This document shows, one piece after another, positions 9,002 through 61,309 of a DNA stretch of 64,000 nt. The notes beneath the pieces were generated by a model. It made no database searches. It had not been told where the DNA came from and saw nothing but the letters and a program-made list of their open reading frames with translations. The stretch covers positions 992 through 64,991 of the forward strand of contig JBDTOI010000002.1 in the NCBI GenBank assembly GCA_039933315.1. Reading direction: 5' to 3'. The stretch is from Pyrinomonadaceae bacterium. Lineage in GTDB: Bacteria > Acidobacteriota > Blastocatellia > Pyrinomonadales > Pyrinomonadaceae. A program made the position numbers and the translations under genes. Position 1 is the stretch's first letter, and each line of letters begins with the position of its first letter.

Positions 9002-10291
9002 CTACTCGTTCTTCGCGACCTGCGGCGGCGCTGCGCTTTCATTGCCGAGGCAGTAGAGCTTTCCATTGAACGCCCCGATGTAAATGCGCCCATTGAGAAT
9101 GGCCGGGGTCGCATTAATGTTTTCACCGATCTTTAGTTCCCACAGACGGCGTCCGTCTTCGGCCGCGAGCATGTACATCCAGCCGGCCTTATCACCAAAT
9201 ACGACGCGTCCTTCGACCACTGGGGAAGTTCCCCAAATGGGGGCCCGCATTAATTGCTGCCAGATAACTTCGCCCTTGTCAGTAGACAGGCAATACATAT
9301 AGCCATTGTTTGAACCGATGTAGACACGATTCCTGACAACGATTGGGCTGGCCCAAAACCCGCTGCGCTCTTTGTAATTCCTACTCAAGCCGCCTTCAGC
9401 CTTGAACTTCCAAACCAGCTCGCCGTTTGCTTGCTGCAGGCAATAGACGTAGCCGTTTTCCGCGGCTGTGTAAATAAACCCGTTCGCCACCGCGGGTGTG
9501 GAATCGGAATCCGCGCCGATGTCAGTTTTCCAGAGAGTAGCGCCATCGATCATTTGCAGGCAGTAGATATTGCCCTGCTCAGTGCCGATATAGATTCGCC
9601 CATCCTTCACGGAAAAACTGCCTTCCATCGATCCGAGCCGTTCTGTCTTGTAAACCAGCGAGCCGTCTTCCAGCCTGAGACAGTAAAAGAAACCATCTTC
9701 ACTGCCAAAATAAACCCGGCCCTCGATGACGGCGGCTGAGCAATCGACTTCAAACCCAGTCTTGTACTTCCAGATTAACGATCCATCGTTGGCGTTCAGA
9801 CAGTAAACGTAATGATCCAGGCCGCTCGCGATCAGCCGGTCTCCAACGATCGTGGGCGCTGCTTTCAGACTGTCTTCAGTCTTGAAGCTCCAGATCAAAC
9901 TGCCGTCTCGGGCGTTGAGGCAGTAGAGGTAACTATCGGCCGAGCCGAAATAAATACGCTCACCTACGAGGGACGGCTGCCCCGGCCAGCTGGAACCGCC
10001 CCATGGGTCTTTGTGCAGGCGACCCTTAGTCCAGTCTGTTTCAAACGCCCAGACGACAGTCAAAGGCTTTTCCGACCAGGGACCTGTGCCGTAGAAATTG
10101 CGCGAGGCGTTTCCCAACCACATGGGAACGCTGGCTTCGATTTTGACGGCCCTGGTCTCGGCCTGAGTTTCTTTTACTACCCTGGCTCCGCAGCCGCTGA
10201 ATGCAATCAGGAATAAGCCAGCCAGGGCCAGCTGAACGGGCAGCCAGCCGGCCACGGAACCATATTGGTGCTTAAAATTGAGAGATTTCAT
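9002..10291 (-). CDS. PQQ-like beta-propeller repeat lipoprotein (BamB family-like)
   Basis: Lipobox 'AFSGC'. About 8 repeats of the pattern 'G.(I/V)Y.G(S/T)..G..YCL...DG...W'. Confidence 0.75.
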   Translation of the reverse strand: MKSLNFKHQYGSVAGWLPVQLALAGLFLIAFSGCGARVVKETQAETRAVKIEASVPMWLGNASRNFYGTGPWSEKPLTVVWAFETDWTKGRLHKDPWGGSSWPGQPSLVGERIYFGSADSYLYCLNARDGSLIWSFKTEDSLKAAPTIVGDRLIASGLDHYVYCLNANDGSLIWKYKTGFEVDCSAAVIEGRVYFGSEDGFFYCLRLEDGSLVYKTERLGSMEGSFSVKDGRIYIGTEQGNIYCLQMIDGATLWKTDIGADSDSTPAVANGFIYTAAENGYVYCLQQANGELVWKFKAEGGLSRNYKERSGFWASPIVVRNRVYIGSNNGYMYCLSTDKGEVIWQQLMRAPIWGTSPVVEGRVVFGDKAGWMYMLAAEDGRRLWELKIGENINATPAILNGRIYIGAFNGKLYCLGNESAAPPQVAKNE

Positions 10292-37093: not shown

Positions 37094-37285
37094 GTGTCAC
37101 AGACTTCAGTCTGTGATTCCCGATCGCAGACACAAGTTTTGACCTTCATGCTTTTCCAGCGAGCAGATGGCCACTTGCAATCACAGACTGAAGTCTGTGC
37201 CACATTGAAGACACAAGTTTTGACCTTCATGCTTTCCACGTTGAGCAGATGGCCACTTGCAATCACAGACTGAAGTCTGTGCCAC
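37094..37285. repeat. family-E hairpin element (copy E1) with ~81-bp-period tandem duplication
   Basis: GTGTCACAGACTTCAGTCTGTGAT (37094-37117) is inverted relative to ATCACAGACTGAAGTCTGTGCCAC (37180-37203 and 37262-37285). Direct repeat units at 37129-37203 and 37210-37285 are near-identical. Confidence 0.9.
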
Positions 37286-38483: not shown

Positions 38484-38735
38484 ATGAAAGAAATATTCAC
38501 TGCTACTATATGGCAAGAGGGGAAGTGGTACATAGCTCAGTGCAGGGAGTTTGAGATTGCCAGTCAGGGCAGTACCAAAGAGGAGGCGCTGGAGAATCTG
38601 ACTGAGGCTATTGAGGCCCACTTCGCGCCTCCGGTCGCGACCCTTGTTCCAGAAGTGATAGCCTTCGAAGCCGAGGTCGAACCGTGGGCCCTGGTAGATG
38701 CCGACGCGCGCGCCAGCGGTGACCGGGTTGACTAA
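38484..38735 (+). CDS. hicB: HicB-family antitoxin (N-terminal HicB fold only)
   Basis: 'FTATIWQEGKWYIAQCREFEIASQGSTKEEALENLTEAIEAHF'. ATG at 38484; the track start at 38445 is TTG. Its stop overlaps the hicA ATG (TAATG). Confidence 0.75.
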   Translation: MKEIFTATIWQEGKWYIAQCREFEIASQGSTKEEALENLTEAIEAHFAPPVATLVPEVIAFEAEVEPWALVDADARASGDRVD

Positions 38736-38959
38736 TGGCGTTGCTTAGATCTCTCCCTTACCGTGTCGTGAAGCGCAAACTCGAGACAGCTGGATTCGAA
38801 GAGAGACCCGGCAGAGGGAGTCATCGTAAGTTTGTGAAGTTCACTCGAGAGGGTGTAGTTACCGCCATCGTTCCTCAGCACCGCGAGATTGCCCTCGGCA
38901 CACTGCGGAGTATCTTACGCCAGGCAATGTTGACTCCTGACGAATTCGACGCGTTATGA
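38735..38959 (+). CDS. hicA: HicA-family mRNA interferase toxin
   Basis: 74 aa. 'VVKRKLETAGFEERPGRGSHRKFVK...VTAIVPQH.EIALGTLRSILRQA' with the catalytic His context GSHRKF. Confidence 0.8.
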   Translation: MALLRSLPYRVVKRKLETAGFEERPGRGSHRKFVKFTREGVVTAIVPQHREIALGTLRSILRQAMLTPDEFDAL

Positions 38960-39026: not shown

Positions 39027-40019
39027 ATGGCTCATAAGAAAAAGCTTCAAGTATTTGTTTCCTCAACCTACACCGACCTGCACGAAGAGCGACAAGCCGC
39101 CGTCGAAGCTATCCTAACCGCAGGACACATACCTGCCGGCATGGAACTCTTCGCCGCCGGAGATCAATCGCAGATGAGCGTCATCAGGCGGTGGATAGAT
39201 GAATCCGATGTTTACTTGCTGATTCTGGGAGGACGTTACGGCAGCATCGAACCGGAGAGTGGCAAGAGTTATATCGAACTGGAGTATGAGTATGCAGTCG
39301 CGCAAAACAAACCATTCTTCGCGGTTGTGATTGAGGAAGATCATCTTGAGAAAAAGGTAAAGAGTGCAGGTACCAAGGTGATCGAGCGGGATAATCCTCA
39401 AAAACTCAAGGACTTTAAGGCGCAGGTCCTGGGCAAGTTGGTGAAGTTCTGGCGTGATCCCCGTGACATAAAACTCGCCATTCTGGAAACGATGTCTGAA
39501 TTCAGTCGGCGTGATGATCTCACTGGTTGGATTCCGGGTAGCGAGGCGATGAACGCGGGCGCGGTAGCGGAGGAGATGGCCCGACTGGCCAAGGAAAATG
39601 CCGAGTTGCGTCAACAAGTCGCAAACATGTCACCGGATCCCGCATCCTATAACGGCCTAACATTCGATGGGATGTATAAGATCCTGTTAGAGGAAGAGGC
39701 AAATATTTCCGAATTCTCGCCAGAATCTATTGAAGTATTTAACCAGGTTGCTGAAATCTTCGGAGATTCAAAACCAGGTCTTATTCACCTGTTCTGGTTG
39801 AGCGGCAACCTGTTTCGACAGCGGCATTATTTGAACTTTTACCTGGGCCAACCGCCGCATGGGATAATGTTAAGATTAGCCGAATTCGGTCTCGTCGTTG
39901 ACGAAGGATCCTTCAGCTTCATTCTAACGGAAACTGGCAGGCAATTACTCCTGCGGTTAAGACTGGAGCGCGACACCAGAAAGGCAGAGGAACTTGTCAG
40001 ATACAACATGCCCTTCTAA
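39027..40019 (+). CDS. DUF4062-domain protein (TIR/nucleoside deoxyribosyltransferase-like N-domain + coiled coil + unknown C-domain)
   Basis: 'KLQVFVSSTYTDLHEERQAAVEAILTAGHIPAGMELFAAGDQS...SDVYLLILGGRYGS...YIELEYEYA' matches my memory of the DUF4062 signature. Central 'AEEMARLAKENAELRQQVANM'. The C-terminal ~125 aa are unassigned. Confidence 0.7.
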   Translation: MAHKKKLQVFVSSTYTDLHEERQAAVEAILTAGHIPAGMELFAAGDQSQMSVIRRWIDESDVYLLILGGRYGSIEPESGKSYIELEYEYAVAQNKPFFAVVIEEDHLEKKVKSAGTKVIERDNPQKLKDFKAQVLGKLVKFWRDPRDIKLAILETMSEFSRRDDLTGWIPGSEAMNAGAVAEEMARLAKENAELRQQVANMSPDPASYNGLTFDGMYKILLEEEANISEFSPESIEVFNQVAEIFGDSKPGLIHLFWLSGNLFRQRHYLNFYLGQPPHGIMLRLAEFGLVVDEGSFSFILTETGRQLLLRLRLERDTRKAEELVRYNMPF

Positions 40020-41744: not shown

Positions 41745-41993
41745 GTGCAGTTTGAACTTAACGGCGAAGGCGTTGGCTAATTCCAGCCCAGGGTTTGCTT
41801 TGAAACCCTGGGGATAAGATGCCTGTTGGTCTTGTCGCAACTCTGAAGGAGTTGCGACAGTTTGCTGTTACCGCGCCGCAACCCTTTCAGGGTTTGCGTC
41901 CTCTGGAAATGTGGCGCTTCTTTCCCAGGGTTGCCAAAGCGCAACCCTGGGCTGAAACTAGCCAACGCTTTCAGCGTTAAATTCAAACTGCAC
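41745..41993. repeat. family-B-related MITE/REP-like element (copy B2)
   Basis: Outer inverted repeat GTGCAGTTTGAACTTAACGGCGAAGGCGTTGGCTA / TAGCCAACGCTTTCAGCGTTAAATTCAAACTGCAC. It shares the CAGCCCAGGGTT(T)GC...CCCTGGG(CTG) modules with B1. Confidence 0.85.
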
Positions 41994-53556: not shown

Positions 53557-53655
53557 GTGGCACAGACTTCAGTCTGTGAAAAACTACGCCCTGGTGGCCA
53601 CTTCAATCTCTGATGAATCTACCGCGCTATATTCACAGACTGAAGTCTGTGCCAC
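53557..53655. repeat. family-E hairpin element (copy E2)
   Basis: GTGGCACAGACTTCAGTCTGTGAA (53557-53580) is inverted relative to TTCACAGACTGAAGTCTGTGCCAC (53632-53655). The right arm overlaps the last 7 codons plus stop of the MFS gene. Confidence 0.9.
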
Positions 53656-61217: not shown

Positions 61218-61309
61218 GTGGCACAGACTTCAGTCTGTGATGGAAGATGCGGAATTTCTGGGATAGGGGTGAGTTTTAAAGTCGGATCACAGACTGAAGT
61301 CTGTGCCAC
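61218..61309. repeat. family-E hairpin element (copy E3)
   Basis: GTGGCACAGACTTCAGTCTGTGAT (61218-61241) is inverted relative to ATCACAGACTGAAGTCTGTGCCAC (61286-61309). It ends 4 nt from the dxs stop codon. Confidence 0.9.

Follow-up and report, generated by a model that had tools for sequence, protein, structure and literature searches.

A Swarozyc-like DUF4062 protein with a distinct AUX subtype, probably a stand-alone abortive-infection NADase, in a polysaccharide cluster of a Pyrinomonadaceae bacterium

In this study, we have examined one gene in a 64,000-nucleotide stretch of DNA (the window) from a Pyrinomonadaceae bacterium (Acidobacteriota, Blastocatellia; assembly GCA_039933315.1, contig JBDTOI010000002.1, positions 992 to 64,991 of the forward strand). 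The gene is a complete open reading frame (ORF) at 39027..40019 on the + strand, with an ATG start and a stop codon, and it encodes a protein of 330 amino acids made of a DUF4062 head, a coiled-coil stalk and a winged helix-turn-helix (wHTH) AUX domain; the sequence quoted for it in an earlier reading of the window's letters (the original prediction) is present. Based on our alignments and models, this is probably a stand-alone abortive-infection protein of the Swarozyc type, in which the head would consume nicotinamide adenine dinucleotide (NAD+) and the AUX domain would act as the sensor. The immune role proposed here is based on homology with the Swarozyc protein of Klebsiella pneumoniae, KpSwz, which extends from the head through the stalk to the winged-helix end of the AUX domain.

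The function of DUF4062 is described in three preprints from 2026. Osinski et al. (bioRxiv 10.64898/2026.05.01.722283) report that DUF4062 is a TIR-like NADase and that KpSwz (PDB 10wc, 11cq and 11cv) is a single-gene, phage-portal-activated NADase acting by abortive infection. KpSwz forms autoinhibited dimers and oligomers with intertwined helical stalks, W176 being part of the intertwined dimer beneath the TIR-like domains, and its AUX, in which the wHTH core packs side by side, binds the phage portal protein; both KpSwz and human TEP1 yield ADP-ribose and nicotinamide as their only products (10.64898/2026.05.01.722283). Ibarra-Chavez et al. (bioRxiv 10.64898/2026.06.25.731849) describe Evangelion as a conserved DUF4062 core with a diversified AUX. 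In Eva01, from S. aureus plasmid pMW2, residues F11, E87 and W162 are essential and abortive infection comes with a drop in NAD+; the protein has affinity for recombination-like DNA, and its escapers were traced to RecA/UvsX-like genes (10.64898/2026.06.25.731849). In Le Mouellic et al. (bioRxiv 10.64898/2026.09.04.749371) the domain is given the new name NIR and is described as the effector of Avs2, of Vulcan (NIR with HEAT) and of Vesta (NIR with alkaline phosphatase), Avs2-NIR, Vulcan and Vesta all depleting NAD+ upon a phage cue. Taken together, the three preprints report that the catalytic Glu is needed, and NAD+ depleted during infection, in KpSwz, Eva01, PsAvs2, Vulcan and Vesta, and the catalytic Glu has been mutated as KpSwz E97, Eva01 E87, PsAvs2 E108, Vulcan E98 and TEP1 E1008. 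They also bear out the statement of the original prediction that DUF4062 is found as an N-terminal effector in large NTPases, namely Avs2, NLR-like proteins, TEP1 and NWD1.

The relationship with KpSwz was found by several different approaches. A sequence search of the PDB matched the KpSwz structure over residues 5-211 of our protein (E = 8.9e-29, and E = 5e-36 with the family profile), and BLASTP gave 34 % identity over 220 residues (E = 2e-32). When the N-terminal parts of the window and Swz families were compared by hhalign the result was E = 7e-44, and the full-length profile-profile alignment of the two families (alignments A1 and A3) covered 307 columns with E = 4e-44. In these comparisons KpSwz is the 325-residue protein P0121, and the numbering of the paper equals that of P0121 plus 14, which fits R18, D71, W176 and W238/Y239; the PDB chain has Ala at the position of E97A. 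The layout of sensor, oligomerizing stalk and effector that had been proposed from the letters of the window is exactly that of KpSwz, with homology from head to C-terminus.

A protein 100 % identical to ours is known from a Pyrinomonadaceae metagenome-assembled genome (Acidobacteriota, Blastocatellia), and more than 100 full-length homologues of 320-350 residues (50-76 % identity) keep the whole architecture. They come from Acidobacteriota, Bacteroidota, Chloroflexota, Gemmatimonadota, Planctomycetota, Verrucomicrobiota and Proteobacteria, and since it is conserved in so many full-length proteins from several phyla, the three-part architecture is far beyond chance. At the level of the best tblastn segment, head and stalk are kept at 45-75 % identity over many phyla (loci L008-L087). 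The 330-residue protein has no match in NCBIfam; among plasmids (PLSDB), none of the 225 matching records covers at least 80 % of the query, that is, the full architecture, and a tblastn search of phage genomes returned two weak matches only.

The head is assigned with confidence. Residues 8-90 fit the full Pfam model of DUF4062 (PF13271, positions 1-82) with E = 4.8e-31 and 107.2 bits, against a cut-off of 24.7 bits. In the full-length AlphaFold2 model (a monomer built from 101 homologues, with a mean predicted local distance difference test score, pLDDT, of 88.4), the alpha/beta head is wider than the span of the Pfam model: strands at 8-13, 35-37, 62-67, 97-102 and 139-142 with flanking helices form five beta-alpha units, mostly with pLDDT >90, so that the TIR-like (DUF4062/NIR) domain occupies residues ~5-165 (39039..39521, +). 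The original prediction, which placed the domain at residues ~5-110, had named the right family but ended it too early. The best Foldseek matches of the head are TIR domains, with SARM1 (6o0u; E = 3e-4, template modelling (TM) score 0.68), RPP1, RUN1, L6, AbTir and the SPARTA TIR-APAZ protein, and the search also finds enzymes of the nucleoside 2-deoxyribosyltransferase type, DNPH1 and the CMP N-glycosidase BcmB. The PDB set searched ends on 2026-04-08 and predates the KpSwz entries, the matches being limited to generic TIR folds. Structure prediction followed by a Foldseek search had been suggested at the outset as a check, and the TIR-like head that they return, together with the three preprints, agrees with the relationship to TIR domains and nucleoside 2-deoxyribosyltransferases that the original prediction gives.

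Within this head we counted residue conservation over the 101 members of the window family (alignment A1). The E-Y motif formed by E86 and Y87 (39282..39287, +) is invariant at both positions (101/101 each), and E86 aligns with KpSwz E97 (P0121 E83, by BLASTP) and with Eva01 E87, with no gaps nearby. On this alignment, E86 in 'ELEYEY' is the predicted catalytic Glu, homologous to the validated Glu of KpSwz and Eva01. Its neighbour E84 was ruled out as the catalytic residue, His or Gln standing at that position in 95 % of the family. The original prediction had suggested a search for invariant acidic residues in a homologue alignment and pointed to the Glu of 'GMELF' as the catalytic candidate. 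The alignment does return two such residues, this Glu (E40) as well as E86, but it is E86 and not E40 that lies opposite the catalytic residues of KpSwz and Eva01. E40, in 'IPAGMELF' (39144..39146, +), is situated at the end of strand B and the start of the BB loop; it is invariant in 101/101 members of the window family and in 101/102 members of the Swz family, and is replaced by Asp in human TEP1. We found no mutation at this position in the available text of Osinski, Ibarra-Chavez or Le Mouellic et al., and E40 may be a second pocket residue or a residue of the BB loop. R70 of 'GGRYG' (39234..39236, +; conserved in 100/101) aligns with TEP1 R976 (residue 83 of chain 11gz_A), whose replacement by Ala is reported to lower NADase activity, and it is a probable phosphate-binding Arg of the active site. 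Finally, F10, R22, W168 and N191 are invariant in 101/101 members. The head keeps all the residues known to matter: F10, R70 and E86-Y87.

Head and stalk are connected by a linker of low confidence in the AlphaFold2 model, which carries the invariant pair G167-W168. W168 of this 'GW' junction (39528..39530, +) aligns with P0121 W162, which is KpSwz W176, and N191 aligns with P0121 N184. The stalk itself, AVAEEMARLAKENAELRQQVAN, is predicted as a single long helix at residues 177-200 (39555..39626, +), in which 6/7 a/d positions are hydrophobic in one heptad register, much as the heptad-like helix had been drawn at residues ~175-205 from the letters. It is also supported by the alignment with KpSwz, where L187/K189/N191/L194 match L180/K182/N184/L187 of P0121, and by weak profile matches to designed coiled coils. 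The invariant N191 would be a buried Asn within the heptad stalk.

The AUX domain (residues 205-330; 39639..40016, +) is the putative trigger sensor. The last ~125 residues of the protein had been described as matching nothing recognizable, and they indeed have no match in Pfam (searched with the C-terminal 139 residues), NCBIfam or PADLOC; as described below, this does not hold for the winged-helix end, which is probably homologous to the AUX of KpSwz. In the full-length AlphaFold2 model a compact C-terminal domain spans residues 208-327, and when modelled alone (pLDDT 92, predicted TM score 0.87) the AUX forms a helical bundle followed by a helix, a beta-hairpin wing and a helix, in line with the suggestion that the C-terminal end could be a winged-helix wing. 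Its nearest solved structures are wHTH proteins of the MarR family, and these matches are weak (Foldseek against the PDB, E 0.02-0.4, TM 0.40-0.46); nothing significant was found for the AUX model among the viral predicted structures of BFVD. The domain is acidic (isoelectric point (pI) 5.2, net charge -5; family median pI 5.5), which argues against classical DNA binding.

As the head could drive the full-length score, we cut both family alignments after the stalk and compared the AUX parts only. By hhalign, the last 42 columns match the Swz family with 91.7 % probability and E = 7.6e-7 (E = 0.056 in the reversed-profile control), aligning 'LAEFGLV…LTETGRQLLLRLRLE' of window residues 274-316 (39846..39974, +) with 'FKALGLL…LSPKGMELMMQLRTV' of the Swz family, and the direct BLAST links between the two families fall on this same winged-helix stretch. 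BLASTP against KpSwz or Eva01 finds no similarity in the C-terminal regions, so that it is the profile-profile comparison alone that revealed the shared end; the first ~70 AUX residues have no hhalign match to the KpSwz AUX. Judged by these alignments, the winged-helix end of the AUX is probably homologous to the AUX sensor of KpSwz, and the domain as a whole is a different subtype. A wider view of 155 C-terminal tails leads in the same direction: at BLAST E <= 1e-3 they form one connected superfamily, joined only via the shared winged-helix end, and at E <= 1e-6 at least four subtypes can be told apart, the window and Swz families plus two more. The boundary of tail exchange lies at about residue 200-230, and many genome loci match our protein only that far.

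The AUX is not confined to DUF4062 heads. When the AUX by itself (128 residues) was searched by phmmer in 1.84 billion representative sequences, 41 proteins were returned, mostly fragments or members of the family. Two others, P0257 (E = 2e-6) and P0265 (E = 2e-5), carry an AUX of the window type behind a canonical TIR_2 (PF13676) head, and a third, P0245 (E = 1e-16), has a TIR-like head followed by two tandem AUX copies. P0252, P0274 and P0278, also returned by this search, were set aside, since they are unrelated secreted proteins that match in several short stretches. The occurrence of one AUX module on two different NAD+-consuming heads gives independent support to the reading of the AUX as sensor and of the head as effector, and is what one would expect of a sensor with interchangeable NAD+-consuming effectors. 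We found no mention of such AUX-TIR fusions in the available text of Osinski, Ibarra-Chavez or Le Mouellic et al.

By analogy with KpSwz, a possible mechanism can be proposed. At rest the protein would exist as dimers or higher oligomers with intertwined stalks, its active site being blocked by the BB loop that starts at the invariant 'PAGMELF'. Once a phage infects, the AUX domains would bind a multimeric phage-derived trigger, and this binding would re-align the stalks and re-pack the heads into an active arrangement, after which NAD+ depletion dependent on E86 would abort the infection. The acidic AUX and the precedent of KpSwz would both favour a protein as the ligand. Because the AUX is acidic and is devoid of the anchor hairpin of KpSwz, the trigger is most likely a phage protein other than the Bas14-type portal, or one that is recognized in a different manner; that it would be the portal specifically is doubtful. 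Neither the portal-recognition anchor W238/Y239 nor the alpha-loop-beta module of KpSwz has a counterpart in our protein by AlphaFold2 and BLASTP. As an observation on the Swz family itself, the anchor Trp (W238 in the paper) is not conserved among close Swz homologues, which have I, N, S or P there (A3, P0121 positions 224-225), and recognition of the portal in the KpSwz manner may be specific to KpSwz rather than a trait of the family.

The 64-kb window around the gene is otherwise ordinary chromosome with housekeeping genes (among them those for pyruvate kinase, DXP synthase, DAP epimerase and DNA Pol A, where DXP is 1-deoxy-D-xylulose-5-phosphate, DAP is diaminopimelate and Pol is polymerase). 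It includes a surface-polysaccharide cluster, which comprises asparagine synthase, methyltransferases, GT2 and GT4 glycosyltransferases, a MurJ-type flippase, a PMT_2-like membrane protein, a GDSL protein, UDP-GlcNAc 2-epimerase and a UDP-glucose dehydrogenase that was assigned by synteny with the related locus L001. The DUF4062 gene belongs to a chain of genes on a common strand that runs from GT4 through a hicB-like gene (38484..38735; 83 residues; DUF7387/UPF0150) and hicA (38735..38959; 74 residues; HicA_toxin E = 5e-14), a toxin-antitoxin pair at 38484..38959 (+) that we regard as a neighbour only. The successive gaps are 60, -1 and 67 nt, the negative one being a 1-nt overlap of hicB with hicA. 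A promoter and terminator scan around the DUF4062 gene found nothing above shuffled expectation, and the gene is probably co-transcribed with the GT4 gene.

In the two closest relatives (L001 and L007; 76 % and 72 % identity) the DUF4062 gene occupies the matching site of the cluster after GT4. In L001 no gene lies between and the DUF4062 gene overlaps the GT4 stop by 11 nt; in L007 the site is taken by an Unstab_antitox ORF (9396-9635) of opposite orientation. The site acts like a small, variable islet where toxin-antitoxin genes gather, and HicBA is incidental to it. Across the three related genomes the DUF4062 proteins are 72-76 % identical and the flanking proteins 57-88 %, and because this divergence matches that of its neighbours, the gene has been inherited together with the polysaccharide cluster. 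Its GC content is 0.495, compared to 0.54-0.59 in the neighbouring genes, and at third codon positions 0.556, other genes of the cluster having mostly 0.62-0.68 (0.56-0.58 in GT4 and one methyltransferase). The low GC, in a gene that nevertheless diverges in step with its neighbours, indicates an old acquisition that is incompletely ameliorated. In L050, another Pyrinomonadaceae copy, the polysaccharide synteny was looked for and not found.

Elsewhere the family is found in varied surroundings. In L003 (1-21056, Spirosoma humi) a member immediately follows a KAP-type NTPase gene in a region that resembles a prophage (terminase, S49 peptidase), in L036 (8001-13045, Ferruginibacter sp.) another is directly upstream of a Gabija-type pair of OLD ATPase and helicase, and in L004 one adjoins an insertion sequence (IS) transposase; other loci are near an nSTAND/WD40 giant or among unrelated metabolic genes. 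Around 24 homologues, with 121 flanking ORFs in total, no family is present at over three loci and no conserved partner gene is seen, which indicates a stand-alone gene, as expected of a single-gene system.

Two repeats of the window can be mentioned here as separate observations. A palindrome resembling repetitive extragenic palindromic (REP) elements, TCACAGACTGAAGTCTGTG, occurs at 7 intergenic sites (37097-37282, 53560-53652 and 61221-61306), where 0.01 matches would be expected by chance; the copies are grouped in twos or threes, 73-84 nt apart, and those at 37.1-37.3 kb belong to a tandem unit of ~82 nt in the region where the MurJ and GT4 promoters diverge. In addition, a 51-nt inverted repeat (41745-41795 / 41943-41993), with arms 88 % complementary and 147 nt apart, is placed between the divergent genes for the 524-residue PMT_2-like protein and a 568-residue membrane protein.

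Several of these results weigh against an abortive-infection protein and have to be set beside those in favour of it, to which we add the low GC of the gene and the prophage, IS and Gabija-type neighbours of its homologues. PADLOC finds no known defence system and no defence island in the 64-kb window (its 'mad2', 'RTasPolA' and 'BrxHI' matches in the window and among the neighbour genes were set aside, being of a generic kind such as methyltransferase and PolA), and PADLOC-DB 2.0.0 (2023), a database older than the discovery of the system, has no match to the protein. Stable synteny in three related Acidobacteria is unusual for defence genes. The sensing step is not transferable from KpSwz, because the first ~70 residues of the AUX are dissimilar, and the AlphaFold2 monomer model is uninformative on autoinhibition. 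These points invite other explanations. One would keep the NADase effector and have the winged-helix AUX sense nucleic acid, such as intermediates of phage replication or recombination, as proposed for Eva01, and we regard it as possible but rather unlikely. MarR-family DNA-binding proteins are the nearest structures to the AUX, the winged-helix end has a mildly basic character in many members of the family (median pI 8.3), and Eva01 is reported to bind recombination-like DNA and to be escaped through RecA/UvsX-like genes; however, those structural matches are weak, the AUX as a whole is acidic, the AUX of Eva01 is unrelated in sequence, and the only homologous AUX of known function, that of KpSwz, is reported to bind a protein, the portal. 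Many bacterial TIRs make signals. The head could accordingly be imagined as a signal-generating TIR, Thoeris-like, which would produce isomers of cyclic ADP-ribose (cADPR) or a similar messenger in place of depleting NAD+; its TIR-like fold, with plant TIRs and AbTir, makers of cADPR isomers, among the best matches, is compatible with this. We nevertheless find it very improbable, as no conserved neighbouring gene encodes an effector to receive the signal and as KpSwz and TEP1 are reported to give ADP-ribose and nicotinamide only.

The surroundings of the gene suggest two further explanations. A non-immune role in the polysaccharide locus, as a wHTH regulator or as a nucleotide or nucleotide-sugar hydrolase that would tune exopolysaccharide or O-antigen synthesis, could account for the position after GT4 kept in three genomes with a divergence equal to that of the flanking genes, for the 11-nt overlap with GT4 in L001 and the short gaps of the gene chain in the window, and for the lack of any defence system nearby; the fold class also includes nucleoside 2-deoxyribosyltransferase, DNPH1 and the CMP N-glycosidase. 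We consider it improbable. Elsewhere the contexts are unrelated (prophage, IS, Gabija neighbour, metabolism) with no recurrent glycosyltransferase, the Pyrinomonadaceae copy in L050 is without the synteny, the site gathers toxin-antitoxin modules as is typical of a small variable islet, and the NADase residues, stalk and sensor are all intact, with an acidic AUX. The proximity of HicBA raises the possibility that HicB, HicA and the DUF4062 protein are one three-gene module in which the toxin-antitoxin pair would regulate or trigger the NADase, and the common strand, the short gaps (67 nt) and a scan that found no sigma-70-like promoter between hicA and the DUF4062 gene would suit it. We rejected this module, which has hardly any chance of being correct, because the orthologous loci are without HicBA (one being empty and one having the Unstab_antitox ORF); HicA/HicB are also not recurrent beside the 24 homologues, and KpSwz and Eva01 are reported to work as single genes. 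A combined scenario, which is unlikely in our opinion without being far-fetched, would hold that the AUX subtype is a portable phage-sensing winged-helix module exchanged between DUF4062 and TIR heads, with a trigger that is not the portal, and that in Pyrinomonadaceae the gene is in addition a vertically inherited passenger of a polysaccharide operon. If true, expression of an abortive-infection NADase would be coupled to the synthesis of a probable phage receptor, or the gene could even have a non-immune function linked to polysaccharide.

A Swarozyc-like abortive-infection protein is, in our view, the probable explanation, and our results then have a broader meaning. They extend the Swarozyc/Evangelion class, described only in 2026, to soil Acidobacteria and many other phyla, and they describe one conserved head-and-stalk chassis that carries at least four related winged-helix AUX subtypes, one of which is also found on canonical TIR domains. 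This natural swap of DUF4062 and TIR effectors supports the AUX as the sensor and the head as an interchangeable NADase. For annotation, the residue to mutate is E86 and not E40. New in this work are the AUX subtypes, the fusions of AUX with TIR heads and a residence in a polysaccharide operon that is unusually stable, the latter being a small oddity for a presumed defence gene.

In conclusion, our protein can be placed among the known systems by what it shares with each of them. With KpSwz it shares a single gene encoding ~325-330 residues, the 'IPAGMELF' and 'GGRYG' motifs, the Trp of the 'GW' junction, the stalk pattern L..K.N..L and a probably homologous winged-helix end; it differs in its AUX, which has predicted helices at 213-222 and 232-244 where KpSwz has the beta-hairpin anchor (W238/Y239) as well as its alpha-loop-beta module, and in its acidobacterial host and polysaccharide cluster, KpSwz being enterobacterial. 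Eva01, for which we used the sequence from a staphylococcal plasmid (L088), has a head 43 % identical over residues 4-144, with F11 corresponding to F10 and E87-Y88 to E86-Y87, but the similarity ends beyond residue ~144 (BLASTP): its AUX is an unrelated helical segment rich in Lys, Asn and Tyr, without coiled-coil stalk or winged helix. Of its Q/W/E motif (Q50-W51-E52), our protein keeps the Q alone (Q49-M50-S51; M50 in 93/101, the third position being variable), and Eva01 is plasmid-borne with a trigger linked to phage recombination proteins or DNA. The TIR fusions P0257, P0265 and P0245 share the motifs of the AUX subtype (GLTFEEM, F.DS.PGLLH.LW, GL and L.D.GK.FLL) and differ by a classical TIR_2 head and the lack of the long heptad stalk, the AUX being doubled in P0245. 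Avs2-NIR, Vulcan and Vesta have the effector domain and its catalytic Glu in common with our protein, which is without the STAND NTPase and repeats of Avs2, the HEAT repeats of Vulcan and the alkaline-phosphatase partner gene of Vesta, its sensor being a small wHTH domain on a stalk. Human TEP1 (PDB 11gz) is of the DUF4062 family and gives a marginal match (E = 0.3 from the single sequence and 0.017 from the profile); there, the domain, whose BB loop is extended, is part of a NACHT/WD40 vault protein of 2,600 residues. Going by its sequence, the protein has a head, a stalk and a winged-helix end that are Swarozyc-like, and it lies outside the Eva01, Vulcan, Vesta and Avs lineages. The class of DUF4062 NADases is established by the three 2026 preprints, and the protein described here is a distant member of it with a distinct AUX subtype.

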